Positions 2,730-35,877 are shown, numbered from the stretch's first letter. The stretch is 64,000 bases of DNA from Lachnospiraceae bacterium (GCA_020860645.1 JAJBTX010000068.1:2577-66576); one strand, 5' to 3'. Translations and numbers: made by a program. Notes: a model not told the origin generated them from the sequence alone.

Positions 2730-2753
2730 ACACGGCGAGGAGGGAAAGAGAGT

Positions 2754-5046: not shown

Positions 5047-5166
5047 AGTAGCCTGCAGCGCCGCCGTCGCGTTTCTGCAGACGGTGACGACAGACAGTGT
5101 CGGAGCAGCCAGAACGATCGCCTCCTCTTCCTTTCGTTACGGATTATTATAAGGGAAGGGGGAGGG

Positions 5167-5209
5167 TTTTACAAGCCGTCTTGTAAAAACATGTTGAAAG
5201 TGGTAAAAT
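5167..5209 (+). promoter_or_regulatory. sigma-A-like promoter (TTGTAA-17-TAAAAT) overlapped by perfect palindrome TTTTACAAG-ccgt-CTTGTAAAA
   Basis: -35 at 5181-5186, -10 at 5204-5209, and 9-bp inverted repeat arms at 5167-5175 and 5180-5188. Lies in the divergent region between the GT2 gene and the priming transferase. Confidence 0.4.
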
Positions 5210-5242
5210 ACAATAGACTATGTTTATGAGGTAGTGTTTTCC

Positions 5243-9489: not shown

Positions 9490-9559
9490 AGTGGAGGCTT
9501 CAGCCTGCCGCGGGTTTTGCCTGTGATCGGACAGGAAATACAACAAGGAGAGAATGACG

Positions 9560-10783: not shown

Positions 10784-10798
10784 GAAAAGGGACATAGA

Positions 10799-12475: not shown

Positions 12476-12493
12476 AACAGAGAGGAAAGTCGG

Positions 12494-13582: not shown

Positions 13583-13717
13583 ATCGGCGTTATCCGGAAA
13601 TATGAGGAGAACCAGGAAAAATGGAAGGACACCGGTGGAAGCGCGGCGAAGGAAGCCGTATCCGGCGACGAGATCCGACTCGGACTCATCGGCGCGGGTA
13701 ATTTCGCGCGCAGTACG

Positions 13718-14614
13718 ATGCTGCCGATCATGAAGGAGAGCGGAAAATTTGCGTTCCATGGCCTGGCTACGACCGGCGGGGTCGGCGCGGCCCAGGCGAA
13801 CGCGGAGACGCCCTTTACCTATACAACGAACAATTATAAAAAGCTTCTGGAGGATCCGGATATCGATCTGATCGCAGTCTCCACGCAGCACGGCAGCCAC
13901 GCAAAATTTGTCGTCGAGGCGCTGGAGGCGGGAAAAAATGTATACTGCGAGAAGCCGCTCTGCCTTACGCTGGAGGAGCTGGAGAGAATCAAGGCGGCTT
14001 ACGGTCAGTCGAAGGGCGAACTCTTCGTCGGCCTTAACCGTCGCTATGCGCCGCTTGCCCGGCAGTTGAAAAAGGAGATGAAGACCGACCAGATTCCGGC
14101 GGTCTATGATTTCATCGCGAACGCGGGGTTCATCCCCCAGAAGCACTGGGTTCACGATGAGGCCGCGGGCGGCGGACGGATACTCGGCGAAGCCTGCCAT
14201 TTTGTCGACCTGATTCAGTATCTCGACGGGAGTGAGCTGCTCGACCTCACTGTGACGGCGGCGAAGAACGACGCCTACCCGATGAACGACAACGTGCTGA
14301 TTACGCTGCGCTTCGCGTCGGGCGCGGTCGGCAATATCGTCTACTCCTCGATGGGTTCGAAGCGCTATCCGAAGGAACAGCTCAGAGTCCTCTCGAACGG
14401 CATGGTCTGTGAGCTGGACAACTTCATCCGCCTGCGGAAATTCGGCTCCTCGAAGACTGCGTCGCACCAGCTGAAACAGGACAAGGGGATCAAAGCGGAG
14501 TATGAATATATTTACAGAGTCCTGAAAGGAAAGAAAAAGAACGCGGCGCTCGCGGACGCCTTCCGCGCCCAGGAGCTGCTGATCCGCGCGATGCAGAAAG
14601 TGAAGGAAGCATGA
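13718..14614 (+). CDS. C-terminal (Gfo/Idh/MocA) half of a bi-domain oxidoreductase; listed from first ATG
   Basis: EKPL motif (YCEKPLCLT) and Gfo/Idh/MocA C-terminal region. Its Rossmann strand-loop LGLIGAGNFA is encoded upstream of this ATG, at 13679-13708, in the same frame. Confidence 0.75.
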   Translation: MLPIMKESGKFAFHGLATTGGVGAAQANAETPFTYTTNNYKKLLEDPDIDLIAVSTQHGSHAKFVVEALEAGKNVYCEKPLCLTLEELERIKAAYGQSKGELFVGLNRRYAPLARQLKKEMKTDQIPAVYDFIANAGFIPQKHWVHDEAAGGGRILGEACHFVDLIQYLDGSELLDLTVTAAKNDAYPMNDNVLITLRFASGAVGNIVYSSMGSKRYPKEQLRVLSNGMVCELDNFIRLRKFGSSKTASHQLKQDKGIKAEYEYIYRVLKGKKKNAALADAFRAQELLIRAMQKVKEA

Positions 14615-15600
14615 GAATCCTGGTATACGACACGGCGGCGGACAGCGGCGGCGCGGTGACGGTGCTGGAAAGCTTTTATGAAGAGTTTTCAAAGGATACG
14701 AAGAATCGTTATGTCTTTGTGCTGGGACGCTATGAGCTGCAGCGGACGGAGAATATCCGGGTGCTGCGCTACCCGTGGGTGAAGAAGAGCCCGCTGCACC
14801 GCCTGTATTTTGAGTGGGTCAAAGCGCCGCGTATTATAAAAAAATACCGAATTGACCGGGTGCTCTCGCTTCAGAATATCACGCTGCCCCGGGCTGGCGT
14901 GCCGCAGGATGTGTACGAGCACAACGCGCTGCCGTTTTCGGAGTATCGCTTTCGCCTGCGGGGCGGCTACCGGCCGTGGCTGACACAGCAGCTGCTTGGC
15001 AGGATGATGAAGCATTCGATTCGCCGTGCCCGGAAGGTCATGGTGCAGACCCGCTGGATGAAGGAGGCGATCGTCCGGCAGTGCGGGATTCCCGGGGAGA
15101 AGGTGGAGGTGAAGTTCCCTGCGGTGGAGATGCTGCAGACCGAAGCCTGGCAGTTGGACGATGCGCGTCCGGCCTTTCTTTATCCGGCGAACGCATCCGC
15201 CTACAAGAATCACCGCACGCTGCTCGCGGCCTGTAAGCTTCTGAAGGAGCGGGGTTTTAGCGATTATCGCATGATCTGGACGGTGACCGGGGAGGAGAAC
15301 GACGGAATTCGTGAGATGAAAAAAGCGGCGGAGCGTGAACGGCTGCCGATCGAGTTTCGCGGCCCGGTGCCGCGCCGCGAGCTCTTTGACCTCTATGCCT
15401 CGTCCGTCCTGGTATTTCCGTCTTATGTGGAGACGGTGGGAATGCCGCTTCTGGAAGCGCAGTCCGTGAGGGCGCCGCTTCTTGCTGCGGACTGTCTCTA
15501 TGCGCGGGATATCGCGGGCGATTATGAGCGGGCGGAATTTCTGCCGGTATTTGAAGCGGAGGCCTGGTGCGCCGCGATGCAGAAATGGCTTGAAAAATAG
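14611..15600 (+). CDS. glycosyltransferase family 1/4
   Basis: MRILVYDTAADSGGA N-terminus and C-terminal E..G.P.LEA motif (VETVGMPLLEAQ). ATGA overlap with the upstream gene. Confidence 0.8.
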   Translation: MRILVYDTAADSGGAVTVLESFYEEFSKDTKNRYVFVLGRYELQRTENIRVLRYPWVKKSPLHRLYFEWVKAPRIIKKYRIDRVLSLQNITLPRAGVPQDVYEHNALPFSEYRFRLRGGYRPWLTQQLLGRMMKHSIRRARKVMVQTRWMKEAIVRQCGIPGEKVEVKFPAVEMLQTEAWQLDDARPAFLYPANASAYKNHRTLLAACKLLKERGFSDYRMIWTVTGEENDGIREMKKAAERERLPIEFRGPVPRRELFDLYASSVLVFPSYVETVGMPLLEAQSVRAPLLAADCLYARDIAGDYERAEFLPVFEAEAWCAAMQKWLEK

Positions 15601-22846: not shown

Positions 22847-22875
22847 TTGCAATTACCGGGAGCTTGTGCTATAGT
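22847..22875 (+). promoter_or_regulatory. sigma-A promoter TTGCAA-17-TATAGT for the B12 operon
   Basis: -35 at 22847-22852, 17-nt spacer, -10 at 22870-22875, immediately upstream of the riboswitch. Confidence 0.55.
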
Positions 22876-22885
22876 ATTTTCTAAT

Positions 22886-23045
22886 CGCAGGTGTCGGCGG
22901 GGAGATCCGCCGGTGAAAAGGGAAACGGGTGAGAATCCCGTGCGAACTCGTCACTGTATGCCGGGAGCGCAGGGCCAGAATGCCACTGAGAGATTGGGAA
23001 GGCGGCCTTAGGCGCGATGATTGGCGAGCCAGGAGACCTGCCTGT
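22886..23045 (+). promoter_or_regulatory. cobalamin riboswitch aptamer
   Basis: Conserved core GGTGAAAAGGGAAACGGGTGAGAATCCCGTGC, then GCCACTG, then B12 box GCCAGGAGACCTGCC. P1 pairing is GCAGGT...ACCTGC. Confidence 0.9.
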
Positions 23046-23121
23046 GAGGATGGGAGCGATGAGCTCCCCAGGCCACGAGTAACTGGTCGCAAATGAAAAA
23101 TTTCATTGCGTCCTCTTACGT

Positions 23122-23152
23122 CGTGCCCCCGATAAGCAGGAGGGCACGTTTT
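23122..23152 (+). terminator. riboswitch expression-platform terminator
   Basis: CGTGCCC...GGGCACG stem followed by TTTT, about 40 nt before the first gene's RBS (AAGAGGAGGAAAAGG). Confidence 0.6.
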
Positions 23153-23190
23153 AGTCTACGCCGAAAAGGCGAAAAGAGGAGGAAAAGGAA

Positions 23191-24426
23191 ATGAAAAGGA
23201 AACTGGCAATGTTACTGGCGGGCGCCATGGTCTTCGGACTGCTGACGGGCTGCGGAAGCAGCACGACGACGGAGACGACGGAAGAGACGGTCGAAGAGGA
23301 GACAGAGGAAGCCGAAGAGGAAGTCGAAGAAGAGGCTGAGGAGGAAGTCGACGCGGATCAGGCGGCGGCTGACGAGGTGGCGGCTCTGATCGACGCGATC
23401 TATGTCCAGGAGTGGACCGAGGATACCGCGGATCAGTGCGCGGCGGCGAAGGCAGCCTGGGACGCCCTGACCGACGAGCAGAAGGAGCTGGTCGAGGGTG
23501 AGAATGCGGATCCGGATTACTTCGGAAGAGACACCGGCGACGCTTCGCTGGATGACGCGAGGAATCAGGACGATATCGGGGAGAACGAGATTCTGGTCGT
23601 GAGCTTCGGTACTTCCTTTAACGACAGCCGTGTGACGGACATCAAGGGGATTGAGGACGCGCTGCAGGAGGCTTATCCGGACTGGTCCGTGCGCAGAGCC
23701 TTTACGGCGCAGATCATCATCAATCACATCCTGGCGCGCGAGGGATATCAGATTGACAATATCGATCAGGCACTGCAGCGCGCGGTGGACAACGGCGTGA
23801 AGAATCTTGTCGTACAGCCGACGCATCTGATGCACGGCGCGGAGTATGATGAGATGATGGAGGCGGTTGAGTCCTACGCGGATCAGTTTGAGACGGTGTC
23901 CGTGGCGGAGCCGCTGCTCGGCGAGGTTGGTTCCGACGCGAGCGTGATCAATGAGGACAAGGCCGCGGTCGCGGAGGCGGTTGTCGCCGCGGCGGTCGAG
24001 GATTCCGATTATGACAGCCTGGACGCGATGGCGGAGGACGGCACGGCGATCGTGCTGATGGGACATGGAACTTCTCATACCGCAAACGTGACCTATGACC
24101 AGATGCAGACGCAGATGGAGGAGCTCGGCTATGAGAATGTCTTCATCGGAACGGTAGAGGGCGAGCCGGAAGATACGGAATGCTCTGTTGTGATTGAGAA
24201 GCTCGCAGAGGCAGGCTATACGAAGGTCATCCTTCGCCCGCTGATGGTGGTTGCGGGCGACCACGCGAACAACGATATGGCGGGAGACGACGAGGATTCC
24301 TGGAAGAGCATGTTCGAAGCGTCCGGCAGCTTTGAGAGCATCGAGACGCAGATTGCGGGTCTTGGCCGCATCGAAGCGGTAGAGGCGCTCTACGTCGAGC
24401 ACACGGCAGCAGCGATGGCGGAGTAA
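23191..24426 (+). CDS. lipoprotein with CbiK-type (class II) sirohydrochlorin cobaltochelatase domain
   Basis: Lipoprotein signal MKRKLAMLLAGAMVFGLLTGC, a Thr/Glu-rich acidic linker and a helical module ending DALTDEQKELV. The CbiK core follows (ILVVSFGTSFNDSR, QPTHLMHGAEY, VLMGHGTSH). Confidence 0.8.
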   Translation: MKRKLAMLLAGAMVFGLLTGCGSSTTTETTEETVEEETEEAEEEVEEEAEEEVDADQAAADEVAALIDAIYVQEWTEDTADQCAAAKAAWDALTDEQKELVEGENADPDYFGRDTGDASLDDARNQDDIGENEILVVSFGTSFNDSRVTDIKGIEDALQEAYPDWSVRRAFTAQIIINHILAREGYQIDNIDQALQRAVDNGVKNLVVQPTHLMHGAEYDEMMEAVESYADQFETVSVAEPLLGEVGSDASVINEDKAAVAEAVVAAAVEDSDYDSLDAMAEDGTAIVLMGHGTSHTANVTYDQMQTQMEELGYENVFIGTVEGEPEDTECSVVIEKLAEAGYTKVILRPLMVVAGDHANNDMAGDDEDSWKSMFEASGSFESIETQIAGLGRIEAVEALYVEHTAAAMAE

Positions 24427-24454
24427 ACCTGATACAAAATGCTGCGGGGTCTGT

Positions 24455-24488
24455 CACAGACAGGCTCTGCAGCGTGGGCTTGTCTGTG
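24455..24488 (+). other. intercistronic RNA stem-loop
   Basis: CACAGACAGGC / GCTTGTCTGTG 11-bp stem (one G-U pair) with a 12-nt loop and no U-tract. Confidence 0.35.
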
Positions 24489-24531
24489 AAAGCGGGTAGA
24501 AAACGGATCCTGCAGACGGAGATGAGAATTT

Positions 24532-25119
24532 ATGAAAAAAGTGATTACTTTACTGGCTGTGCTTTCCCTCACAGCCGCGCTCTGCGTCGGATGCGGCGGC
24601 AGTGCGCAGGAGGAGAGCACCGCGGACACAGCCTCCGGGGAGGAAGCCGTGTCTGAAGGAGAATCCGGCGCAGAGGAGGAAAACGGCTCGAACGAAGAAT
24701 CCACTGCGGAGGAAGAGGCGGCGGAGACGGTCACCGTGGAAGCTGAGCTTGAGGATGGCGTCTACCTGGCCGACTTTGACACGGATAGCTCGATGTTCCA
24801 CGTCAATGAATCCTGCGATGGCAAGGGTACCCTGACCGTGGAGAACGGTGTGATGACGATCCACGTCTCTCTGGTGTCAAAAAATATTGTCAATCTCTAC
24901 TATGGCCTTGCGGAGGACGCGCAGCAGGACGGCGCGGAGCTGATCGAGCCGACGCTGGACAGCGTCACCTACAGTGACGGCTACACGGAGGAGGTCTACG
25001 GCTTCGACATTCCGGTACCGGCACTGGATACGGAGTACAATGTCGCGATTATCGGCACAAAGGACAACTGGTACGACCATATGGTCAGCGTGTCAAACCC
25101 TGAGTTGCTGACGGAGTAA
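24532..25119 (+). CDS. small lipoprotein, acidic linker plus beta-rich domain (NEAT-like by eye), function unknown
   Basis: Signal peptide with lipobox-like LCVGC, an E/S-rich linker, then EDGVYLADFDTDSSMFHVN..GTLTVENGVMTIHVSL..YGFDIPVP. Paralogous in pattern to the next ORF. Confidence 0.65.
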   Translation: MKKVITLLAVLSLTAALCVGCGGSAQEESTADTASGEEAVSEGESGAEEENGSNEESTAEEEAAETVTVEAELEDGVYLADFDTDSSMFHVNESCDGKGTLTVENGVMTIHVSLVSKNIVNLYYGLAEDAQQDGAELIEPTLDSVTYSDGYTEEVYGFDIPVPALDTEYNVAIIGTKDNWYDHMVSVSNPELLTE

Positions 25120-25130
25120 TGCGATCACGC

Positions 25131-25162
25131 GCCCCCGCTTTCGCGAAAAACGAAGCGGGGGC
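25131..25162 (+). terminator. strong GC hairpin between the two small surface-protein genes (weak U-tract; attenuator or stabiliser)
   Basis: GCCCCCGCTT / AAGCGGGGGC 10-bp stem, 12-nt loop, followed by ACTTTCC. Confidence 0.4.
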
Positions 25163-25194
25163 ACTTTCCATACTCTGGAGAGGAGTTTTCGGAT

Positions 25195-25737
25195 ATGAAA
25201 AAACGGAATTTTGCATGGATTTGTACGGCGGTTCTGACCATTCTCTGCGCATGGGCGCCGCTTACCGCCCACGCGGAAGCGCTGGAGGCGGCCTGGATCG
25301 AGATGGAGGACGGCGAGTACGCGATCGACGTGGCGATGGAGGGCGGCAGCGGAAAGGTGACGATCAGCTCCCCGGCGATTCTGATCGTCGAAGATGGGCG
25401 TGCCTACGCGCGCATTGAGTGGAGCAGCACGCATTACGATTATATGAAGGTGGGCGATGAGACCTACTATCCGGTTAACGAGGACGGGGGCTACTCTACC
25501 TTTGAAATTCCGATCACGGTGTTCAATGAGGCGATGACTGTGATCGGCGATACGACGGCGATGAGTACGCCGCATGAGGTTGAGTATACGCTCATTTTCG
25601 ACTCTGACTCGATCACTTCAAAGAGCCAGACGCCGCAGGCGGCGGCGCAGAGAGTTGTCTATATGGCGCTCGCGATCATCGCGGTCTGCGCGGTGGTTTC
25701 CATCATCAAGAAGAGAAGAAGGTATTCCGCGAAATGA
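25195..25737 (+). CDS. secreted beta-rich protein with C-terminal membrane anchor (NEAT-like by eye), function unknown
   Basis: Signal peptide ending LTAHA, then EDGEYAIDVAMEGGSGKVTISSPAILIVEDGRAYARIEWSSTHYDYM..FEIPI..HEVEYTLIFD. C-terminal TM segment VVYMALAIIAVCAVVSII followed by KKRRR. Confidence 0.65.
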   Translation: MKKRNFAWICTAVLTILCAWAPLTAHAEALEAAWIEMEDGEYAIDVAMEGGSGKVTISSPAILIVEDGRAYARIEWSSTHYDYMKVGDETYYPVNEDGGYSTFEIPITVFNEAMTVIGDTTAMSTPHEVEYTLIFDSDSITSKSQTPQAAAQRVVYMALAIIAVCAVVSIIKKRRRYSAK

Positions 25738-26879
25738 GAAAAAGATGGATGGCAGCGGTTCTTCTGCCGGCAACGGCATTCACGCTTATGGGCTGTGGCT
25801 CGTCCGCGGGGGCAGATGCGGCGGCTCGGGATACCAACATCAGCGAAGAGCTGAGCTTTACGGAGAGCATGGAACTCTCCTATGCGGAAGAATTTTCCGT
25901 GGATTACTATGAAAATGATTTTGCGCTGATCACGATCGCGGACAGTGCCCGCTACCTGCTCGTCCCGGAGGGGGAGAGCGCTCCGGAGGATCTGGATGAG
26001 GAGATCGTGATTTTACAGCAGCCGATTGAAAATATATATCTTGTGGCTTCAGCCGTGATGGACATGTTCGTTTCCATGGATGCGCTGGACGCGATTCGCT
26101 TCAGCGGTACGCAGGCGGACGGCTGGTACATCGAGGAGGCGAAGACCGCGATGGAAAATGGGGATATTCTCTATGCGGGCAAATATTCCGCACCGGATTA
26201 CGAGCAGATCCTTGCGGAGAACTGCGGCCTGGCGATCGAGAATACGATGATCTACCACACGCCGGAGGTGGAGGAGCAGCTGGAGAAATTCGGTATTCCG
26301 GTGCTCGTCGACTATTCGAGCTATGAGGCGGAGCCGCTCGGACGGACCGAGTGGATAAAGCTCTACGGTCTGCTGGTTGGCGAGGAGGAGGCCGCGGAGG
26401 ATGCTTTCGCGGCGGAGATTGAAGAGTTTGCGACAGTGGCGGACGCGGAACAGACGGGATTGACGGTCGCCTTCTTCTACATCACGACGAATGGCGAGGC
26501 GAATGTCCGGCAGTCATCCGACTATCTGCCGAAGATGATCGAGCTCGCGGGCGGAACCTATATTTTTGCGGTTCTCGGCGACGAGGACACGGCTTCCTCG
26601 ACCGTGACGATGACGATGGAGGAGTTCTACGCGGGGGCGAAGGACGCCGACTATATTATCTATAACAGTACGATCGACGGGGAACTCACATCGGTCGACG
26701 AACTGTTGGGGAAAAGCTCGCTTCTCGGCAACTTCAGCGCCGTGCAGAGTGGAAATGTCTACTGTACGTCGAAGAACCTCTACCAGTCCTCGATGGAGCT
26801 CGGCACGATCACGGCGGATATTCACCGCATGCTGACCGGGGAGGATGAGGAGCTCACTTATCTGTATAAACTGGAGTGA
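25734..26879 (+). CDS. ABC transporter substrate-binding lipoprotein, BtuF/FepB (cluster A/type 8) family
   Basis: Lipobox TLMGC and a periplasmic-binding-protein layout. Followed by a FecCD permease and an ATPase, under a cobalamin riboswitch. Confidence 0.8.
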   Translation: MRKRWMAAVLLPATAFTLMGCGSSAGADAAARDTNISEELSFTESMELSYAEEFSVDYYENDFALITIADSARYLLVPEGESAPEDLDEEIVILQQPIENIYLVASAVMDMFVSMDALDAIRFSGTQADGWYIEEAKTAMENGDILYAGKYSAPDYEQILAENCGLAIENTMIYHTPEVEEQLEKFGIPVLVDYSSYEAEPLGRTEWIKLYGLLVGEEEAAEDAFAAEIEEFATVADAEQTGLTVAFFYITTNGEANVRQSSDYLPKMIELAGGTYIFAVLGDEDTASSTVTMTMEEFYAGAKDADYIIYNSTIDGELTSVDELLGKSSLLGNFSAVQSGNVYCTSKNLYQSSMELGTITADIHRMLTGEDEELTYLYKLE

Positions 26880-26883
26880 AGGA

Positions 26884-27894
26884 ATGAAGAACAGAAGATA
26901 TTGCCTTGCATTTCTCATACTGGCCGCACTGTTGCTCGTGCTTCTGGCGGTGAACGTCTGCATTGGCAGCGTCGGCATTCCCTTCGCGGAGGTGTTGCAC
27001 ATCCTAACCGGGCATGGTTCCGATGCAACCTATACTGACATTGTCATGCAGATCCGCCTGCCGCGCGCGCTGGCCGCGGCGATCCTCGGCGGAGCGCTGG
27101 CGCTGTCCGGCTATCTTCTGCAGACTTTCTTTCACAATCCGATCGCGGGTCCCTATATTCTCGGCATTTCGTCGGGCGCGAAGCTGGTCGTCGCGCTTGT
27201 GATGGTCTTTGCTCTGGGACAGGCGGCTGTTGTAAGCTCAGGAATGATGATTATCGCGGCATTCATCGGCTCCATGATCTCAATGGGTTTTGTGATTCTG
27301 ATGTCGCGCTATATGGAGCAGATGTCGATGCTGATCGTGTGCGGCGTTATGATCGGTTATATCTGCTCGGCGATCACGGAATTTGTCGTGACCTTTGCAG
27401 AAGATGCGGATATCGTGAATCTGCACAGCTGGTCGCAGGGAAGCTTCTCCGGTATCTCCTGGAATAATGTAATTGTGATGTCGGTCGTTGTTTTTCTCGC
27501 CTTCGCCGCGGTGTTTCTGATGTCGAAGCCGATCATGGCCTATCAGATGGGCGAGTCCTACGCGAGAAATATGGGGCTTAACATCCCCGTGTTCCGCGTG
27601 CTGCTGGTGCTGCTCTCCAGTATTCTGTCGGCCTGCGTGACCGCCTTTGCAGGGCCGGTTTCCTTTGTTGGTATCGCGGTGCCGCATCTGGTGAAGAGCC
27701 TTTTTAAGAGTTCCAGGCCGCTGCTTCTGATTCCCGGATGTTTTCTTGGCGGCGCTTCCTTCTGTCTGTTCTGCGACCTGCTCGCGCGGACACTGTTCGC
27801 GCCGACGGAGCTCTCGATCAGCACAGTGACCGCAGTCTTCGGCGCGCCGGTTGTCATTTACATTATGATACGGCGCAGAAAGGAGCGGGCGTAA
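26884..27894 (+). CDS. FecCD/BtuC-family ABC permease
   Basis: LPRALAAAILGGALALSGYLLQTFFHNPIAGPYILGISSGA is the FecCD signature region. ATG at 26884 preferred over the track start at 26845. Confidence 0.9.
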   Translation: MKNRRYCLAFLILAALLLVLLAVNVCIGSVGIPFAEVLHILTGHGSDATYTDIVMQIRLPRALAAAILGGALALSGYLLQTFFHNPIAGPYILGISSGAKLVVALVMVFALGQAAVVSSGMMIIAAFIGSMISMGFVILMSRYMEQMSMLIVCGVMIGYICSAITEFVVTFAEDADIVNLHSWSQGSFSGISWNNVIVMSVVVFLAFAAVFLMSKPIMAYQMGESYARNMGLNIPVFRVLLVLLSSILSACVTAFAGPVSFVGIAVPHLVKSLFKSSRPLLLIPGCFLGGASFCLFCDLLARTLFAPTELSISTVTAVFGAPVVIYIMIRRRKERA

Positions 27895-27898
27895 GCGG

Positions 27899-29002
27899 AT
27901 GAAGGGTGATATGATCTATTTCCGGACAGAGGGTCTGACGGTTGGCTACAACGGCGTTCCGCTGATCCGGGACATTGAATTGTCCATGAAGCGTGGGGAG
28001 ATCCTGACGCTGATCGGACCGAACGGAGCCGGGAAGACTACGATTCTGAAAAACATCATACGGCAGCTCGAACCGCTCGGCGGGACGGTGTTTCTCGACG
28101 GGCGGAAACTTCCGGAGCTTTCCGGACACGAGCTCTCGACGCAGATGTCGGTTGTACTGACCGAGCGGGTGAAGACGGAGCTTATGAGCTGCGAGGACGT
28201 CGTAGCCACCGGACGTTATCCCTATACCGGAAGGTTTGGCGTGCTTTCGGAGGAGGATCACCGCATCGTGCGGGAGTCGATGGAACTTGTTCATATCTCA
28301 GAGCTTAAGGAGCGCGATTTCTCCGAGACCAGTGATGGACAGAAGCAGCGTGTCATGCTGGCGCGGGCACTCTGTCAGCAGCCGGATATCCTTGTGCTCG
28401 ATGAGCCGACTTCTTTCCTCGACATACGCTACAAGCTGGAGTTCCTCTCGATCATTCAGGAAATGTCGCGACAGCATGGCCTCTCGGTTATCATGTCGCT
28501 GCATGAGCTCGATCTGGCGGGACGGATCTCGGACAAGCTTGCCTGCATCCGTGGAGACAAGGTGGACCGTTTCGGCACGCCGGAGGAGATCTTTACAGAG
28601 GGTTACATTCAGGAACTTTACCAGATGACGGTCGGTTCCTATGACGAGCGAACCGGCAATCTGGAACTGACGCCCGTCAAGGGCGAACCGGAGGTCTTCG
28701 TGATCGCCGGGAACGGCCGTGGCACGGATGTTTATCGAAGTCTGCAGCGGCGCGGCATTCCCTTCGCGACGGGTATCCTCTGGGAGAATGATCTCGACTT
28801 TCCGACGGCGCACGCGCTGGCGGCGGAGCTGGTCAGCGTACCGGCGTTTCACGAAATTTCTGCGGAGGAATTGGTGCGCGCGAAGAAGATCATGGATCGC
28901 TGCGGGCATGTGATCTGCACCTTTGAAAAAGGGGCATATTTGCCGGAAGGCCTGCAGGAGCTGGTCTCTTATGCACGGCATAAAGGTTACGAAAACATAT
29001 AA
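27899..29002 (+). CDS. ABC transporter ATP-binding protein (BtuD/FecE-like) with extra C-terminal domain
   Basis: Walker A GPNGAGKTT, signature SDGQKQRV, Walker B ILVLDEPTS. About 110 extra residues follow the canonical cassette. Confidence 0.9.
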   Translation: MKGDMIYFRTEGLTVGYNGVPLIRDIELSMKRGEILTLIGPNGAGKTTILKNIIRQLEPLGGTVFLDGRKLPELSGHELSTQMSVVLTERVKTELMSCEDVVATGRYPYTGRFGVLSEEDHRIVRESMELVHISELKERDFSETSDGQKQRVMLARALCQQPDILVLDEPTSFLDIRYKLEFLSIIQEMSRQHGLSVIMSLHELDLAGRISDKLACIRGDKVDRFGTPEEIFTEGYIQELYQMTVGSYDERTGNLELTPVKGEPEVFVIAGNGRGTDVYRSLQRRGIPFATGILWENDLDFPTAHALAAELVSVPAFHEISAEELVRAKKIMDRCGHVICTFEKGAYLPEGLQELVSYARHKGYENI

Positions 29003-29017
29003 AGGAGAATACAGAAT

Positions 29018-29716
29018 ATGGCTGGAAAAATTTACGGTATCGGGGTGGGACCGGGCGATCCGGAGCTGCTGACCCTGAAGGCAAAGAAAATACTGGACGC
29101 GGCGGATGTGATCGCCGTTCCGGTCAAGGAGGCGGGCGAGTACAGCACGGCGCTGGAGATCATCCGTCCGGTTGTCGATCTTAGTGGAAAGGAGATCGTC
29201 GAAGTCGTCTTCCGCATGCTGCGAGACGAGGAGGAGCGGAAGAAATGTCGCGCCGCGGCCTGTGAGCAGCTGGCGGATCTGCTGCGCGGCGGCAAGGATA
29301 TCGCGATGATTACGCTTGGCGATGTATCGGTCTACAGCACCTACATGTATGTGAATAATTATCTGGCGGAGGCTGGATTTGAGACGGAAATCATCCCGGG
29401 CATCCCGTCCTTCTGCAGTGGGGCGGCGAAGGCGCAGCTTGCGCTCATGGAGGGCAACGAGGGTCTGGCGATCGTGCCATCAGCGAAGGAGAATCTGCTC
29501 GTGGACGCCGTGCTCGATCATTTTGAAAATATTGTCGTCATGAAGGCGGGCGGCAGCATTGAGAAGCTGATCGAAAAGCTGAAAGCACGCGGTATTCTGC
29601 TCACTGCGGCGACCGTCTTAAGCTGTGTCGGCATGGAAAATGAGTATATCGGGCCGCTCGACCCGGAGCGCGAGTACAGCTATTTCACCACGGTCATCAT
29701 CAAGAAGGGGGAGTAA
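29018..29716 (+). CDS. cbiL: cobalt-precorrin-2 (cobalt-factor II) C20-methyltransferase
   Basis: [32 protein letters not shown] start, about 230 aa, with the [12 protein letters not shown] motif. Confidence 0.85.
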
Positions 29717-29722: not shown

Positions 29723-30478
29723 ATGGTATCATTTATCGGAGCGGGACCCGGCGATCCGGAGCTCCTGACGATCAAGGGAAAGAAGATTATTGACAGCGCC
29801 GATGTAATCATCTACGCGGGTTCACTTGTCAACCCGCAGGTGCTTGCGGATGCGAAGGAGGGCGCGGTCATCTATAACAGCGCCACGATGAATCTCGACG
29901 AGGTGATCGCCGTCATGAAGGACGCGGAGGAGAAAGGTCTCAAGGTGGCGCGCGTGCACACCGGCGACCCGGCGATCTACGGCGCGCACCGGGAGCAGAT
30001 GGACCGTCTCGACGAGCTGGGCATCGACTATGAGGTGATTCCGGGTGTGAGCTCCTTCCTCGCGACCGCGGCGGTGCTGAAGAAGGAGTATACGCTGCCG
30101 GGCGTCAGCCAGACGGTGATCCTAACCCGGATGGAGGGCAGGACGCCGATGCCGCCGAAGGAGAAGCTGCTCGATCTCGCGCAGCACAACGCGACGATGA
30201 TCATCTTCCTGAGCGTCGGCATGCTGGACGAGATGTCCGAGATTCTGCGTCAGGCTTACCGCGATACCACGCCGGTGGCGGTCGTCTACAAGGCGACCTG
30301 GGAAGATCAGAAGATCGTGTACGGCGATCTCACCAATATCGCGGAGCGCGTGCGGGAGGCCGGTATTCGCAAGACAGCCCTCACGGTCGTCGGCGATTTT
30401 CTGGGGGATGAATATGAGCTGTCAAAGCTCTACGATAAGACCTTTACCACAGAATTCCGAAAAGGAGTGACAGACTGA
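29723..30478 (+). CDS. cbiF: cobalt-precorrin-4 C11-methyltransferase
   Basis: [31 protein letters not shown] and ARVHTGDPAIYGA motifs. Confidence 0.88.
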   Translation: MVSFIGAGPGDPELLTIKGKKIIDSADVIIYAGSLVNPQVLADAKEGAVIYNSATMNLDEVIAVMKDAEEKGLKVARVHTGDPAIYGAHREQMDRLDELGIDYEVIPGVSSFLATAAVLKKEYTLPGVSQTVILTRMEGRTPMPPKEKLLDLAQHNATMIIFLSVGMLDEMSEILRQAYRDTTPVAVVYKATWEDQKIVYGDLTNIAERVREAGIRKTALTVVGDFLGDEYELSKLYDKTFTTEFRKGVTD

Positions 30479-31659
30479 TGGGTATCACACTGATCAGCAT
30501 CAGCCATCAGGCGGCGCCGCTTCACATCCGGGAGATGTTCGCATTTCCGGAGGAGGTACAGGCTGAGCTGATGAAGCAGATGATCGGGAAGGGCATTGCG
30601 GATGAGTGCGTGATCATCAGCACCTGCAACCGGACCGAGGTTTACACGTATTCGGAATGTCCGGACAGCAATTTTGCTGCCATGCAGGAGCTGCTGCTCG
30701 AATTTGCGAACGCGCAGGATGTAGAGCACATGGGCGATTATATCCGGCTTTACAGTGGATCAAAGGCGATCCGCCATCTGTTCCGCGTGACCGCGGGGCT
30801 GGACTCGATGGTGATGGGCGAGGATCAGATTCTCGGCCAGGTAAAGCGCGCGCATGAGTTCGCGCACGAGACGGGGAGCTGCGGCGTGTACCTGAATACG
30901 CTGTTCCGCTACGCGGTGACCGCGGCGAAGAAGGTGAAGACCGAGACGGATCTTTCCCGTACGACGGTGTCGACGGCGACGATGGCGATCAAGGCGGCCG
31001 AACAGACCTTCGGCTCGCTGCATGGGAAGAAAGTCATGCTGATCGGCGCCTCCGGCAAGATCGGCAGCACGGTGCTCAAGAATCTGCAGTGTATCGAGGG
31101 GGCGGAAGTCTACATCACGGCCCGGAATATGGGACAAGCAAGCGCGGACCCGCACCACAAGATCAGCTACCAGGTCATGGACTATGAGAAACGCTATGAG
31201 CTTGTCAATGAGATGGACGTGATCGTCAGCGCGACGTCGAGTCCTCACTATACGCTCACTTATGATAACCTCGCGAAATGTCTTGTGACGGAGAAGCCCC
31301 GTGTGCTGGTCGATCTGGCGGTGCCGATCGATATCGATGCGCGCGCGGAGAAGCTGCCCGGCGTGAAGCGCTACGATATCGACGACTTCCGCGAGCTGGC
31401 GGCCGCAAACAATGAGAAGAAGCAGCACGAGGCGCTCGAGGCGGAGCAGATGCTCGAGGAGTCCCGCAAGGATTTTGAGCGCTGGATGATCTTCCAACAA
31501 GGGCTGCCAATGATCGCGAAGACGAAGGAGTGGATGCTGCGTGAGGCGGAAAAGAAGGGTTTTGAGAGGGCGATTGACAAGATGTTTTACCGGCTGCGGG
31601 ATAATTCTGAGCCGGAGGAACTGCGGGCTTTCCTTGAGCATCTTGGAAACGCAGAGTAA
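30478..31659 (+). CDS. hemA: glutamyl-tRNA reductase
   Basis: ISHQAAPLHIRE, STCNRTEVY catalytic Cys motif and GASGKIG NADPH site. The start overlaps the cbiF stop (TGATG). Confidence 0.88.
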   Translation: MGITLISISHQAAPLHIREMFAFPEEVQAELMKQMIGKGIADECVIISTCNRTEVYTYSECPDSNFAAMQELLLEFANAQDVEHMGDYIRLYSGSKAIRHLFRVTAGLDSMVMGEDQILGQVKRAHEFAHETGSCGVYLNTLFRYAVTAAKKVKTETDLSRTTVSTATMAIKAAEQTFGSLHGKKVMLIGASGKIGSTVLKNLQCIEGAEVYITARNMGQASADPHHKISYQVMDYEKRYELVNEMDVIVSATSSPHYTLTYDNLAKCLVTEKPRVLVDLAVPIDIDARAEKLPGVKRYDIDDFRELAAANNEKKQHEALEAEQMLEESRKDFERWMIFQQGLPMIAKTKEWMLREAEKKGFERAIDKMFYRLRDNSEPEELRAFLEHLGNAE

Positions 31660-31673
31660 GGGAGGATTTTTTC

Positions 31674-32411
31674 ATGGGCAAATTATATGTGGTTGGCTTC
31701 GGCCCTGGCGGGAAGGAGCACATGACGCAGAAGGCGATCGACGTGATCACGCAGGCGGACGTCGTGACCGGTTACACCACTTACGTCAATATTCTGAAGG
31801 AATATTTTCCGGATAAGAAATACATCGCGACGCCGATGATGCAGGAGGTAAAGCGCTGTGAGATGGCGGTCGAGGAGGCGATGAAGGACCAGACGGTCGT
31901 GATGGTCTCCAGCGGTGACAGCGGTATCTACGGCATGGCCGGTATCATCTATCAGGTGGCGGATGAGAAGCAGGCGGATATCGAGATCGAGACCGTGCCG
32001 GGCGTGACCGCGGCCAGTGCGGCGGCCTCCGTCCTGGGCGCGCCGCTGATGCACGACTTCGCGGTGATTTCCTTAAGCGATCTGATGACGCCGCTTGAGC
32101 TCATCATGAAGCGCGTGGACTGCGCGGGAGCCGGCGACCTGATCGTCTGCCTCTACAATCCGAAGAGCAAAAAGCGCACCGGCTATGTGGAGCAGGCGGC
32201 GGACATTCTGATGAAGTACCGCTCCGATAAGACGCCGGTCGGCATTGTGCGGAACGCGGGCAGGAGCGATGAATCCTCCTGCATCACGACGCTCGGAGAA
32301 CTGAAAAACGCGGAGATCGACATGTTCAGCGTCGTCATCATCGGAAATTCCCAGACCTACACAAAGAATGGGAGAATGATTACACCGAGGGGCTACGCGG
32401 TGAATCGGTGA
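31674..32411 (+). CDS. cbiH: cobalt-precorrin-3 (cobalt-factor III) C17-methyltransferase
   Basis: KLYVVGFGPGGKEHMTQKA..ADVVTGYTTYV and SSGDSGIYGMAG motifs. Confidence 0.88.
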   Translation: MGKLYVVGFGPGGKEHMTQKAIDVITQADVVTGYTTYVNILKEYFPDKKYIATPMMQEVKRCEMAVEEAMKDQTVVMVSSGDSGIYGMAGIIYQVADEKQADIEIETVPGVTAASAAASVLGAPLMHDFAVISLSDLMTPLELIMKRVDCAGAGDLIVCLYNPKSKKRTGYVEQAADILMKYRSDKTPVGIVRNAGRSDESSCITTLGELKNAEIDMFSVVIIGNSQTYTKNGRMITPRGYAVNR

Positions 32412-32434
32412 GCCGTGCGACGCAGGGAGGAATT

Positions 32435-34816
32435 ATGCAGAGTATCATACGTATCGGGACCAGAAAGAGTAAGCTCGCTCTGGTTCAGACGGAGACCGTA
32501 AAACAGAAGATCGAGGAGCTTTTCCCGGAAATCCAGGTGGAGCTGGTGACCTTTTCGACAAAGGGCGACGAGCTGCTCGACCGCTCACTCACTTCCTTTG
32601 GCGGGAAGGGCGTGTTCACGAAGGAGCTCGAGGAGGCGCTGCTGAGCGGAGAGATTGATCTTGCCGTGCACAGCGCGAAGGACATGCCGATGGAGTTCCC
32701 GGAGGGACTGCAGATCGGCGCGGTTCTGCCGCGCGCGGCGGTGGAGGATGTGATTGTCACGCGTGATGGAACGCCGCTTGCGGAGCTCGTTCCGGGCAGC
32801 GTCGTCGGTACGAGCAGCCTCCGCAGGGAGCTGCAGATCCGCAGAATCCATCCCCTTGTGAAGATTCAAATGCTGCGCGGCAACGTGCAGACGCGGCTCC
32901 GTAAGCTGTCCGAGGGGCAGTACGACGCGATCGTCCTCGCGGCGGCGGGTCTTAAACGCCTGGGCCTCGATCAGGATTCTTCTTTCCATTATGAATATCT
33001 TACGCCGGAGCAGTGCCTCCCGGCAGCAGGACAGGCGATCCTCGCGGTGGAGAGCCGGGAGGGGCGTCTCACGGAGTTGCTTGAGAAGCTGAACGACCCG
33101 CGTTCGGCAGTGATGCTGAGTGCGGAGCGCGCGTTTCTGACAGAGATCGGCGGCAGCTGCAACGCGCCAGCGGCGGCGCTCAGCCGCCTGGACGGGGATA
33201 CCCTTCGCATGGACGCGATGTTCGCTTCCGACGGCATTCACATGAAAAAAGTTTCCGGGGAAAGCGTGACCGGACTGGATACCGGGAAAGCGGCGGAGCT
33301 CGGCACAGCGCTCGCGAAAAAGATACGGACGGGCAAGGTCTGGCTTGTCGGCGCCGGTCCCGGGAATAAGGACCTGATCACGCAGAAGTGCCTTTCCTGC
33401 GTGCGCGCGGCGGATGTGATTGTCTATGACAGTCTCGCGACGGATTCGCTTTTAAATGAGGCGAGACCCGACGCGGAGCTTATCTATGCGGGGAAGCGTT
33501 CGTCCCATCATCATCTGAAGCAGGAGGAGACGAATGCGCTGCTGATCCGTCTGGCGAAGGAGGGAAAGAATGTCGTGCGCCTCAAAGGCGGCGATCCCTT
33601 CATCTTCGGGCGAGGCGGCGAGGAAGCCGAGGAACTGCTGGCGGCGGAGGTTCCCTTTGAGATCGTCTGCGGCGTGTCGTCCTGCTACAGCGCTCCGGCC
33701 TATGCGGGGATCCCGGTGACGCATCGCGATCACGCCTCTTCCTTCCATGTGATCACGGGTCACGAAGGCAGCCACAAGACGGCGAATGTGCTCGACTACG
33801 CGACGCTCGCGCGGGAGGAGGGGACGCTCATCTTTTTGATGGGATTGAAGAATCTCCCGAATATTGTGAAAAATCTGATCGAAAATGGTAAAGATAAGAA
33901 TACGCCCGCCGCGGTGATTCAGGAGGGCACGACCGCGCGGCAGAAGGTGGCGGTGGGAACGCTTGCCACGATCGTGGAGGATGCGGCGAAGGCAGGGATT
34001 CAGACCCCGGCGATCACCGTCGTCGGTGATGTGGCAACGCTTCGCGAAAGGATTGACTGGTTCGGGAAAGAGCCACTCTCCGGGAAACGGGTGCTTCTGA
34101 CCGCGACGCCGAAGATGGCGCAGGAGCAGGCGGAGGTCCTTGAGGCGGAGGGGGCGGAGACGATTCGTTTCAGCCTGATCTATACGCAGCCGCTTCTCTC
34201 GGAGGAAATCGCCCGGGCGGTGGTGCAGCTCTCGGATTACAGCTGGCTTGTCTTCACGAGCAGCAACGGCGTGGATATTTTCTTTGATTACCTGCTGGAG
34301 TGCGGGAAGGACCTGCGCAGTCTTGCCGGGATCAGGCTTGCGGTGATCGGCGAGGGGACGCGGCGCGCACTTGCCGCGCGCGGCCTGCAGGCCGATTTCG
34401 TGCCGGCTTCCTTCAGCAGCAAAGCGCTTGCGAAGGAGTGGATCCCGACGCTCACAAAGAATGACCGCGTGCTGCTTCTGCGCGCGGAAGAGGCGTCGCA
34501 GGAACTGAACCGCGCGCTTGACGCGGCGGGCATTTCCTATACGGCGGACGCGCTCTACCGCACGGCGGTCGATACGCGCAAAGAGGAGGAGCTGCGCCGC
34601 CTTCTGCAGGATGTGGACTATGTGACTCTGTGCAGCGCCTCCGCGGCGCGGGCCTTTGCTTCGATGACGCAGGGACTGGAATACAGTGCGCAGGTCGTCT
34701 GCATTGGCCCGGTGACCGAGAAGGCTGCGCGTGCGGAAGGAATCCCGGTGGGACAGTCCGCGGTGGTCTATGACGCGGAGGGAATCCGGAATGTGCTGCT
34801 CTATGAGGTGAGGTAA
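32435..34816 (+). CDS. trifunctional fusion: hydroxymethylbilane synthase / uroporphyrinogen-III C-methyltransferase / uroporphyrinogen-III synthase
   Basis: HemC part (IRIGTRKSKLALVQTE, GGSCNAPAAA) runs to about 33330. CobA part (VWLVGAGPGNKDLIT, RLKGGDPFIFGRGGEE) runs to about 34060. HemD part runs from about 34080. ATG at 32435 follows AGGGAGGA. Confidence 0.88.
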   Translation: MQSIIRIGTRKSKLALVQTETVKQKIEELFPEIQVELVTFSTKGDELLDRSLTSFGGKGVFTKELEEALLSGEIDLAVHSAKDMPMEFPEGLQIGAVLPRAAVEDVIVTRDGTPLAELVPGSVVGTSSLRRELQIRRIHPLVKIQMLRGNVQTRLRKLSEGQYDAIVLAAAGLKRLGLDQDSSFHYEYLTPEQCLPAAGQAILAVESREGRLTELLEKLNDPRSAVMLSAERAFLTEIGGSCNAPAAALSRLDGDTLRMDAMFASDGIHMKKVSGESVTGLDTGKAAELGTALAKKIRTGKVWLVGAGPGNKDLITQKCLSCVRAADVIVYDSLATDSLLNEARPDAELIYAGKRSSHHHLKQEETNALLIRLAKEGKNVVRLKGGDPFIFGRGGEEAEELLAAEVPFEIVCGVSSCYSAPAYAGIPVTHRDHASSFHVITGHEGSHKTANVLDYATLAREEGTLIFLMGLKNLPNIVKNLIENGKDKNTPAAVIQEGTTARQKVAVGTLATIVEDAAKAGIQTPAITVVGDVATLRERIDWFGKEPLSGKRVLLTATPKMAQEQAEVLEAEGAETIRFSLIYTQPLLSEEIARAVVQLSDYSWLVFTSSNGVDIFFDYLLECGKDLRSLAGIRLAVIGEGTRRALAARGLQADFVPASFSSKALAKEWIPTLTKNDRVLLLRAEEASQELNRALDAAGISYTADALYRTAVDTRKEEELRRLLQDVDYVTLCSASAARAFASMTQGLEYSAQVVCIGPVTEKAARAEGIPVGQSAVVYDAEGIRNVLLYEVR

Positions 34817-34818
34817 AG

Positions 34819-35877
34819 ATGGAACTTCTGCACGGCGGGAATATTTATGATGAAAATCTGAACAGGGAAGAGGCTGCCCCGCTTCTCGACTTCTCCGCGA
34901 ACATTAATCCGCTGGGGATGCCGGACAGCGTGCGGTGCGCCGTATGTGCTTCCCTCGATCTGGCGCACAATTATCCGGATCCGCTTTGCCGGAAGCTGCG
35001 TACGGCGCTGTCGGAGGAATATGCTCTTCCGGCAGAGTTTTTTCTGTGCGGCAACGGCGGCGCGGATCTGATTTACCGCCTGGCCTATGCCCTGCGCCCG
35101 GAAAAGGCTCTGCTGACGGCACCGACTTTCGCGGAGTATGAAGAGGCCCTGAAGCAGACAGACACGGAGCTCTGCTTCTATGAGATGCAGAAGGATTTCG
35201 TCGTGCGGGAGGATATCCTTGCGCGGATGGACGAGTCCGTCGATGTGATGTTTCTGTGCAATCCGAACAATCCGACCGGACTGCTCGTGGATCAGGAGCT
35301 GCTGCCCCGCATTCTGGAAAAGGCGCGGCAGTGCGGGATTCTGCTCGCGCTGGACGAGTGTTTTCTTGATTTCACCGGGCAGCCGGAGCGCTCTCTTGTC
35401 CCATACGTGGTGCAGTCGCCCGGTCTTTTGATCCTGAAATCCTTCACCAAGATGTATGCGATGCCGGGTCTGCGGCTCGGCTACTGTATCTGTTCGGATC
35501 AGGCGCTTCTTTCCCGTATGGCCGTGGCGGGGCAGTGCTGGGGCGTCAGCATTCCCGCCTCCGAGGCCGGGATTGCCGCGCTGAAGGAAAAAGAATACAC
35601 GCAGCGTGTGATCGGCCTCGTGCGGGAGGAGCGCGCATTTCTGAAAACGGAGCTGGAGAAGCTGGGCTTCGAGGTCTGGGACGGGCAGGCGGATTATCTT
35701 TTCTTCCGCGCGCCGGGCGTGTACGATCTTTACGAACGGCTTCTGCCGCAGCGCATTCTGATCCGCCGCTGCGCGAATTACCGTGGCCTGGACGGGACAT
35801 ATTACCGTGTCGCCGTGAAGAGTCATGAGGAAAATATGCGGCTGCTGGGGGCGCTTGCAGGCTGTTCCGAAAAATAA
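34819..35877 (+). CDS. cobD: threonine-phosphate decarboxylase (class I/II aminotransferase fold)
   Basis: HGGNIY..DFSANINPLG start, NPNNPTG and SFTKMYAMPGLRLGY PLP-lysine motif. Sits in a cobalamin operon. Confidence 0.82.
   Translation: MELLHGGNIYDENLNREEAAPLLDFSANINPLGMPDSVRCAVCASLDLAHNYPDPLCRKLRTALSEEYALPAEFFLCGNGGADLIYRLAYALRPEKALLTAPTFAEYEEALKQTDTELCFYEMQKDFVVREDILARMDESVDVMFLCNPNNPTGLLVDQELLPRILEKARQCGILLALDECFLDFTGQPERSLVPYVVQSPGLLILKSFTKMYAMPGLRLGYCICSDQALLSRMAVAGQCWGVSIPASEAGIAALKEKEYTQRVIGLVREERAFLKTELEKLGFEVWDGQADYLFFRAPGVYDLYERLLPQRILIRRCANYRGLDGTYYRVAVKSHEENMRLLGALAGCSEK

Follow-up and report, generated by a model that had tools for sequence, protein, structure and literature searches.

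Introduction

Competition for corrinoids shapes gut communities, and the known proteins that capture these compounds at the cell surface, BtuG and BtuH, all come from Bacteroidetes. BtuG, a beta-propeller, and BtuH, which carries DUF4465, are surface lipoproteins of Bacteroides whose genes lie in B12 transport loci under riboswitch control. Both capture corrinoids ahead of the transporter (PMC6143338, PMC8941943), which is the role proposed here for part of a locus in a Lachnospiraceae bacterium (GCA_020860645.1, JAJBTX010000068.1:2577-66576). The stretch analysed, hereafter the window, comprises 64,000 nucleotides, and the locus consists of a cobalamin riboswitch, three genes for exported proteins (genes 1 to 3, 23191 to 25737) and the genes of a BtuFCD-type importer (genes 4 to 6). 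The first of the exported proteins is a CbiK-type chelatase, and the other two carry predicted NEAT-like domains.

Two kinds of described system come closest to this locus. One is the NEAT-domain haem relay of the Isd type in Firmicutes (IsdB/H, IsdA and IsdC to IsdE-IsdF; IsdX1/X2 in B. anthracis; Hbp2 with Lmo2184 in Listeria). The other comprises class II chelatases that are exported, retain the complete metal site and are encoded next to a FecCD-type ATP-binding cassette (ABC) importer, namely CbiK(P) of Desulfovibrio vulgaris (2xvx) and IhtB/FetB of Porphyromonas gingivalis (9b86); FetB is a lipoprotein, as is the product of gene 1. In vitro, FetB inserts Co(II) and Mn(II) into a porphyrin, but Fe(II) is not inserted and haemin is not dechelated (PMC13065792); the iht operon is reported to be unresponsive to iron or haem starvation (PMC12094164). 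Rodionov et al. (2004) noted periplasmic cbiK together with cbiL and btuCDF under one B12 element in Desulfovibrio species, in which no cobalt transporters are known (PMC545781). The first-pass annotation of the window had considered a Gram-positive surface set of CbiK plus two NEAT-like proteins under B12 control to be undescribed. A literature search for links between NEAT domains and cobalamin, corrinoid, B12, riboswitch or BtuF found no relevant paper; the claim of novelty is nevertheless narrowed by the Desulfovibrio arrangement. The module is real and widespread, is undescribed in the literature searched, and joins the two known kinds of system, NEAT relays and exported CbiK beside BtuFCD.

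The likeness to the Isd/NEAT relay extends from the predicted beta-sandwich fold and the surface anchoring to the gene neighbourhood, since in both cases the NEAT genes adjoin those for a Peripla_BP_2 lipoprotein and a FecCD-type importer. Multi-domain arrays found among the relatives recall IsdX2, and the binding protein is nearest to Lmo2184. In contrast with the Isd systems, all members of the present families score under the Pfam NEAT threshold, and the usual context of a sortase wall anchor and an iron-regulated (Fur) locus is replaced by a lipid or membrane-helix anchor and a cobalamin riboswitch. Moreover, the residue that by position would be the first Tyr of the YxxxY motif is mostly His here and is preceded by a nearly invariant Met, and the domains form a fixed pair of two types that is partnered by a CbiK chelatase.

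Compared with CbiK(P) and IhtB/FetB, the host is Gram-positive and there is no TonB receptor, an acidic linker and a helical module are frequently added to the chelatase, and the haem ligand of CbiK(P), His96, is missing. Furthermore, CbiK always occurs here with NEAT-like domains, to which it is sometimes fused, and tandem double-CbiK forms exist. The resemblance to BtuG and BtuH lies in surface lipoproteins within riboswitch-controlled B12 transport loci, whereas the folds are unrelated, with no DUF4465 or propeller match among the Foldseek matches of genes 2 and 3. BtuG and BtuH also feed the outer-membrane BtuB, and not a binding protein on a single membrane.

A cobalamin riboswitch leads a trio of exported proteins

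The riboswitch aptamer (RF00174, 22872..23059) matches the full Rfam model (positions 1-189) with 114.8 bits against a gathering score of 31.5 (E-value 5e-28) and ends 131 nt before the start of gene 1; like all other features of the locus described below, it lies on the + strand. Within the 64 kb, the only two Rfam matches were this riboswitch and one tRNA. The aptamer is abutted by a promoter-like site (TTGCAA-17-TGcTATAGT, 22847..22875), a consensus match only, with 9/12 matching positions and an extended TG. Between the aptamer and gene 1, folding of 23030..23200 revealed a terminator-like hairpin (CGUGCCCCC...GGAGGGCACG; 23122..23148, z-score -4.0) followed by UUUU (whole element, 23122..23152), and the strong ribosome-binding site of gene 1 (AGGAGGAAAAGGAAATG) is positioned 3' of this hairpin. 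Judging from its sequence, the hairpin is likely to be the OFF-state transcription terminator. The riboswitch would then permit transcription of the operon when corrinoid is scarce in the cell, and the hairpin would stop it when corrinoid is abundant. The first-pass annotation had described a riboswitch-led trio of genes with export signals, and its coordinates and features were all recovered, including the lipoboxes of genes 1 and 2 and the signal peptide and transmembrane helix of gene 3.

Gene 1 (23191..24426, 411 aa) encodes a lipoprotein with the fold of the CbiK-type class II chelatases. Its N-terminus (MKRKLAMLLAGAMVFGLLTGC) contains the signal and lipobox (LLTGC, Cys21; residues 1-21), which are followed by an acidic, Thr/Glu-rich linker (approximately residues 22-55), a helical module (approximately 56-125) and the CbiK core (133-411). 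The core had been described as complete and as keeping both histidine motifs of CbiK, and this was borne out: Pfam CbiK (PF06180) matched residues 134-409 over model positions 3-261 of 262, that is, full-length, with 241.7 bits (E-value 1.1e-71), and in the alignment with S. enterica CbiK, residues H292, E323 and H358 fall on the metal-site positions H145, E175 and H207. Together with H212 and E218, these three residues are invariant in 73/73 homologous CbiK domains. Against NF047852, the NCBIfam equivalog model of the biosynthetic sirohydrochlorin cobaltochelatase, gene 1 scored 188.8 bits, below the cut-off of 400. Its best relatives in the PDB were FetB/IhtB (9b86, the closest), S. enterica CbiK (1qgo) and D. 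vulgaris CbiK(P) (2xvx). The position of the CbiK(P) haem ligand His96 is occupied by Asp220 in gene 1 and by Asp in 47 of the 73 CbiK domains, and His is absent from the four commonest residues at this site.

A homologue search with gene 1 returned at least 8000 clusters at 90% identity, and public records label the protein 'sirohydrochlorin cobaltochelatase'. Since gene 1 carries this biosynthetic name, pipelines that predict B12 producers may count a surface protein as a pathway step.

No in-frame ATG was found between codons 14 and 133, as already stated in the first-pass annotation; that annotation had recognised a single in-frame GTG, at codon 63, but there is a second one at codon 137. 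The former has no Shine-Dalgarno sequence, and the latter lies inside the first strand of the core, which makes it an implausible start. An internal cytoplasmic start was consequently rejected. Indeed, a lipobox is present in every readable full-length CbiK homologue in the loci fetched for comparison, comprising 80 loci from different species.

The helical module of gene 1 (23356..23565, approximately residues 56-125; AALIDAIYVQ...AAWDALTDEQKELV...DPDYFGRDTG) has no match in Pfam or NCBIfam. Together with the acidic linker it is kept in the CbiK lipoproteins of 45 of the 80 loci, and it is missing from shorter forms. Two CbiK domains in tandem within one lipoprotein open reading frame (ORF) were observed in three loci (L011:7495-9261, L021:7396-9201 and L024:7386-9203).

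Genes 2 and 3 encode predicted NEAT-like domains

Gene 2 (24532..25119, 195 aa) encodes a lipoprotein composed of an acidic linker and a NEAT-like beta-sandwich domain (approximately residues 70-192, 24739..25107), and Gly20-Cys21 of its lipoprotein signal are invariant in 31 aligned homologues. Gene 3 (25195..25737, 180 aa) encodes a cleavable signal peptide of the AHA|E type, a NEAT-like domain (residues 31-145, 25285..25629) and a C-terminal membrane helix (147-179) with a KKRRR stop-transfer end. In public records the relatives of both genes are named hypothetical proteins; at least 8000 clusters at 90% identity, all so named, were found with gene 2, and the gene-3 family comprises 1546 representatives at 50% identity (E-value up to 0.001).

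A resemblance of both proteins to NEAT-type haem-capture domains had been noticed by eye, and structural modelling gave it substance. For gene 3, AlphaFold2 gave a model with a beta sandwich at residues 40-142 followed by the membrane helix, at a mean predicted local distance difference test (pLDDT) score of 88.6, and all of the model's top 50 Foldseek matches in the PDB were NEAT domains, the best being IsdX1 (E-value 2.2e-5, TM-score 0.69), accompanied by IsdX2-N5, Hbp2-N2, IsdC, IsdH-N3 and IsdA. The gene 2 model, with pLDDT above 85 over residues 70-195, had its best PDB matches in Hbp2-N2, Shp and IsdX1, and both models correspond to the eight-stranded, immunoglobulin-like beta sandwich of solved NEAT domains, on which they superpose. 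At the sequence level, Pfam NEAT (PF05031) gave 15.8 bits for gene 3 (E-value 0.019), below the gathering score of 32.8, and no match for gene 2. Fused homologues came closer to the threshold (30.9-31.7 bits), with both domain types matched. Sequence searches of PDB chains with the gene-3 domain and with profiles A1, A2 and A7 yielded a single marginal NEAT match (3sik, E-value 0.7), and the diverse family profile A7 found no NEAT chain. Since the models match NEAT structures, the Pfam scores stay below threshold and the profiles miss NEAT chains, the small proteins are predicted to be NEAT-fold domains that fail the sequence test of the NEAT family.

The ordered pattern that genes 2 and 3 had been said to share is real: the two families align in hhalign with a probability of 92.7% (E-value 4.4e-7) over a span that consists partly of signal peptides. 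By this comparison the two proteins are paralogues, and their types are referred to as g2 and g3. Among 183 diverse domains of the g3 type, Y42, G50-G51-x-G53, S78, Y81, P106, T120, M123 and Y131 are 95-99% conserved (98% for Y131), and Y42, M123 and Y131 show no variation among the 26 sequences of the diverse subset A7. Conservation is lower at H127 (83%), with Tyr (e.g., in P0282 and P0239), Lys, Arg or Val in other members. The most conserved motif of the type, TTAMSxPHExxY, extends from the hairpin that precedes the last strand into the beginning of this strand, where H127-x3-Y131 is located; a Gly-rich loop stands in place of the lip helix. Canonical NEAT domains have YxxxY at this position of the last strand. 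TTAMSxPHExxY is thus a candidate for the equivalent pocket, the equivalence being drawn from secondary-structure position only. The g2 type conserves M88-F89, in the lip after strand 1 and ahead of a short helix, and W180-Y181, where the last strand begins. Conserved positions in the NEAT-like domains are occupied by Tyr, Met, His, Ser, Thr and Asp/Glu, and no conserved Arg or Lys was found in the 183 domains of the g3 type.

The juxtamembrane segment of gene 3 (TPQAAAQRVVY) and its membrane helix (25618..25737, approximately residues 142-180) are nearly as conserved as the domain itself, which hints at a specific contact within the membrane, possibly with BtuC. Two hairpins separate the small genes. 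One, a stable 17-bp hairpin with no U tract, follows gene 1 (24439..24475, fold z-score -5.3), and the other, GC-rich and with a weak U tail, follows gene 2 (25131..25162, z-score -4.9). As judged from the folds, they could be partial terminators or elements for mRNA processing or stabilisation, which would tune the levels of the surface proteins relative to those of the transporter.

The importer genes

Gene 4 (25734..26879), whose start overlaps the stop of gene 3, encodes a BtuF-like substrate-binding lipoprotein (Peripla_BP_2, Pfam E-value 9e-27). It is followed by gene 5 (26845..27894), for a BtuC-like FecCD permease (Pfam E-value 6e-80), and gene 6 (27899..29002), for a BtuD-like ABC ATPase with a C-terminal extension (Pfam E-value 2.5e-29). 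The three families of a BtuFCD importer are thus encoded together and under riboswitch control, and among the NCBIfam models the highest scores were obtained with BtuC (PRK03784) for the permease of gene 5 (215 bits, cut-off 334) and with the corrinoid ABC transporter ATPase (PRK09536) for gene 6 (212 bits, cut-off 537). The differences from described BtuFCD are the scores below the equivalog cut-offs, the C-terminal extension of the ATPase and the lack of a sequence match to solved BtuF.

In the PDB, the single sequence of gene 4 found no match, and its family profile, which recovered neither BtuF nor IsdE, matched Lmo2184 most closely (5joq, E-value 9e-8) and, besides it, only a siderophore binder. 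As neither BtuF nor a well-characterised haem binder was matched, this search does not settle the cargo. Lmo2184 is the binding protein of the Listeria srtB/Hbp2 NEAT/haem locus, and not a B12 protein. This would suggest a shared descent of the NEAT-like domains and the binding protein from an Isd-type system.

Conservation, gene order and fusions

Relatives of gene 3 were found in at least 582 species genomes, mostly of Lachnospiraceae but also of Ruminococcaceae, Eggerthellaceae, Coriobacteriaceae and Anaerotignum. Of the 80 loci fetched, 71 contain CbiK, 66 the g2-type domain, 78 BtuF, 77 BtuC and 75 BtuD, and the order CbiK, g3 type, BtuF and BtuC within 6.5 kb recurred in 68 loci; because these belong to different species, the arrangement goes beyond chance. 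Rfam placed a cobalamin riboswitch directly upstream in 7/7 diverse loci, and a covariance model built from those seven detected one just upstream of the module in 69/80. Of the 11 loci with none, six were cut by contig ends and five were true absences according to Rfam. The linkage of the families to cobalamin riboswitches and BtuFCD-type genes, which the first-pass annotation had proposed to check, therefore holds across genomes.

Domain fusions tie the components of the module together. The conserved export of CbiK is accompanied, in 11 loci, by its covalent fusion to the g2 domain (signal, helical module, CbiK and g2 domain in one protein), and g2-g3 fusions occur in 22 loci and in 62 of 147 representatives. 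Based on these sequences, the g2-g3 pair behaves as a unit with the fixed order g2 then g3. The BtuF-like protein is itself fused to NEAT-like domains in P0282, P0293, P0332, P0364 and L066; in P0282 and P0293, g2, g3 and BtuF form one lipoprotein, and in P0364 g3 is joined to BtuF through two transmembrane helices, a topology that leaves the two domains on the outer side of the membrane. Proteins of 883-1605 aa (P0243, P0244, P0248 and P0351) consist of arrays in which g3 and g2 domains alternate, with 4-6 domains each. Some multi-domain array proteins end in a Peripla_BP_2 fragment at a contig edge.

Three variant loci have neither CbiK nor a riboswitch, and in these an additional ORF of about 208 aa, with no Pfam match, lies between btuF and btuC (L062:11748-12371, L065:11751-12374 and L076:11783-12433). 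Another locus, L073, contains three cobalamin riboswitches within 8 kb (463-654, 6086-6278 and 8022-8213), the second of which precedes a Cys-rich small-domain protein and a LysO-like exporter, and the third a xylose-isomerase-like TIM-barrel protein. Neither a cobalt transporter nor a second chelatase was found in the flanks of L073 and L079.

Surface capture of corrinoids as the favoured reading

The riboswitch, the export signals, the NEAT fold of the models, the conserved gene order and the domain fusions define a module for extracytoplasmic, B12-regulated handling of tetrapyrroles coupled to a type II ABC importer, an assignment that is well supported. More specifically, and with moderate confidence, we interpret the module as an Isd-like surface relay repurposed for the capture of corrinoids, in which the identity of the ligand, the route along which it is passed and the part played by CbiK are inferred from context. 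According to this model, CbiK, the gene-2 protein and the BtuF-like protein would be lipid-anchored on the outer face of the cytoplasmic membrane, where the gene-3 protein would be held by its C-terminal helix. The g2-g3 pair, acting like the NEAT domains of Isd, would capture a cobalt tetrapyrrole outside the cell and pass it on to the BtuF-like protein, which would dock on the BtuCD importer. The most likely cargo would be a corrinoid whose axial position is exchangeable, for example cobinamide or another incomplete corrinoid, or an aquo-cobamide. As part of the same surface machine, the exported CbiK may bind incomplete corrinoids through its metal-site histidines, or it may insert metal.

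This corrinoid relay is favoured because of the regulon logic, the BtuC- and BtuD-like scores, the non-basic pocket and the precedent of BtuG and BtuH. In particular, the lack of conserved Arg or Lys in the g3 pocket suits amidated corrinoids better than polycarboxylate intermediates. The surface relay had been the central proposal of the first-pass annotation, and all the computational tests that it had put forward came out in its favour, with the ligand suggested by context.

Several observations weigh against this reading. The NEAT fold is, to our knowledge, known as a haem binder only, and the closest solved relative of the binding protein, Lmo2184, presumably belongs to a haem locus. All BtuC and BtuD scores in NCBIfam fall under the equivalog cut-offs, and the riboswitch is missing from five loci (L048, L060, L062, L065 and L076), although in one of them, L060, the g3 homologue adjoins CobS. 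Furthermore, salvage of corrinoids leaves two features unexplained: the invariant His/Glu/His chelatase site in 73/73 exported CbiK domains, and a linkage to CbiL and an exporter (about 30 and 28 loci, respectively) that is described below.

If corrinoids are indeed the cargo, the module provides concrete candidates for surface corrinoid acquisition by Gram-positive gut Clostridia and looks like the first such system. The NEAT fold would gain a second class of tetrapyrrole ligand beyond haem, and the exported chelatases CbiK(P) and IhtB/FetB gain a testable B12-regulated context.

Alternative readings and the linkage to CbiL

In the window, btuD is directly followed by cbiL (29018..29716), encoding the cobalt-factor II/precorrin-2 C20-methyltransferase, whose product scores 211.5 bits against the equivalog model TIGR01467 (cut-off 163). 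CbiL adjoins the module in 35/80 loci, and in about 30 of those 35 no other B12-biosynthesis gene occurs within 10 kb. Genes for a DrrA/DrrB-like ABC-2 exporter are associated with the module in 28 loci, nearly always as neighbours of cbiL. In L010 (5437-7719, - strand), the unit consists of CbiL, again above the TIGR01467 cut-off, a DrrA-like ATPase and a DrrB-like ABC-2 permease, and the exporter unit occurs in 27 further loci (e.g., L009-L023, L026-L031, L033-L035, L037 and L044). The CbiL-DrrA-DrrB unit either diverges from the riboswitch promoter or forms a downstream part of the riboswitch-led operon. A single operon of ten genes is led by one riboswitch in L034 and L035, with CbiK, g2-g3, BtuFCD, CbiL, DrrA, DrrB and a second g3-type gene; an additional g3-type gene likewise follows the exporter unit in L044. 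This recurrent link between CbiL and an ABC-2 exporter had gone unmentioned in the first-pass annotation. It leaves room for another cargo, namely a cobalt tetrapyrrole produced on the outside of the cell, and suggests cobalt insertion there with subsequent re-import.

On this basis, the module could be a cobalt-acquisition branch of B12 synthesis rather than a salvage system, an explanation that we consider somewhat unlikely. A sirohydrochlorin-type tetrapyrrole would be present outside the cell, brought there by DrrAB-like export where the exporter exists or taken from the environment, and CbiK would load it with Co2+; the NEAT-like pair would bind the complex through axial Tyr, His or Met, the BtuFCD-like importer would take it back up, and CbiL would methylate it so that the pathway continues. 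Surface cobalt insertion with re-import accounts for both the invariant chelatase site and the CbiL/exporter linkage, including the single ten-gene operons of L034 and L035. Cobalt uptake is, besides, a common target of B12 riboswitch control, and the gene order in the window (cbiK, transport, cbiL, cbiF and so on) tracks the order of the pathway, with no other chelatase found in the 64 kb among the profiled ORFs of at least 150 aa. Co-protoporphyrin is among the ligands that NEAT domains can bind, and 3qzp is one of the Foldseek matches of gene 3. The closest solved homologue of gene 1, FetB, is a surface chelatase with the cobalt-inserting activity mentioned above (PMC13065792), and the Desulfovibrio cbiK-cbiL-btuCDF arrangement under a B12 element, with no known cobalt transporter, points in the same direction (PMC545781).

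Against surface insertion, cbiL and the exporter are both missing within 10 kb in about half of the loci, and no DrrAB-like genes were found in the window. Basic residues, which an octacarboxylate ligand should need, are not conserved in the g3 domains, and the export of a costly intermediate would be wasteful. Moreover, D. vulgaris reportedly has a cytoplasmic CbiK as well, which is regarded as its biosynthetic enzyme. In its most elaborate form, with a sirohydrochlorin-type 'cobaltophore' that is exported by DrrAB, loaded with Co2+ by CbiK, captured by the NEAT-like domains, re-imported by the BtuFCD-like transporter and processed by CbiL, extracellular cobalt entry is rather unlikely. If it were true, the exported CbiK would be a true pathway enzyme and the module a new cobalt-acquisition route, and the same logic would extend to CbiK(P) of Desulfovibrio.

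An Isd-type uptake of haem or porphyrin, in which the B12 riboswitch would merely coordinate the tetrapyrrole economy, is very improbable. The best structural matches are all haem-binding NEAT domains, the candidate axial ligands Tyr, His and Met are conserved, the closest solved binding protein is Lmo2184, and the exported homologues D. vulgaris CbiK(P) and P. gingivalis IhtB have been described as haem-binding (PMC12094164). Nevertheless, haem uptake conflicts with the regulation and the gene context: a cobalamin riboswitch precedes most of the loci, the neighbours are B12 genes (cbiL, cobS and cob operons), and no haem-degradation function and no haem or iron regulator was seen among the profiled neighbour genes. 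The permease and the ATPase score higher on the B12 than on the haem models of NCBIfam, and the haem ligand His96 of CbiK(P) is replaced by Asp220. We know of no pathway from haem to B12. In addition, FetB neither inserts Fe nor dechelates haem (PMC13065792).

Finally, an annotation artefact, with gene 1 being a cytoplasmic biosynthetic CbiK translated from an internal start and genes 2 and 3 encoding unrelated surface proteins, would fit the public name of gene 1 and its place at the head of an operon of early B12-pathway genes, but is excluded, with a vanishingly small chance of being right, because the lipobox is conserved and fusions exist (CbiK to the exported g2 domain, and both g2 and g3 types to BtuF), and it is further opposed by the unsuitable internal start codons and by the strong ribosome-binding site before codon 1. 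The probability that remains beyond the named readings belongs to cargoes or roles that we have not conceived of.

Rest of the operon and other features of the window

The riboswitch is followed by twelve tightly packed genes on the + strand, the last of which ends at 35877. Downstream of cbiL, Pfam and NCBIfam identified cbiF, hemA, cbiH, a hemC-cobA-hemD fusion and a cobD-like aminotransferase gene (29723..35877). The triple fusion, an ORF of 802 aa (32408..34816), joins HemC (porphobilinogen deaminase), CobA (uroporphyrinogen-III methyltransferase) and HemD. A terminator-like site lies inside the last gene of the operon (35008..35035), and a promoter-like site is located at 35890.

Beyond the operon, the segment 43732..60140 resembles an integrated conjugative or plasmid-like element, with genes for ParA, ParB, RepA_N together with DUF6017, NlpC/P60, a VirD4/TraG-type coupling protein and a TraG P-loop ATPase. 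At the other end of the window, 447..15600 holds a surface/exopolysaccharide cluster that comprises genes for a CotH-kinase/lamin-tail-domain protein, a sugar transferase, glycosyltransferases, a heparinase II/III-like protein and a UDP-glucose dehydrogenase.

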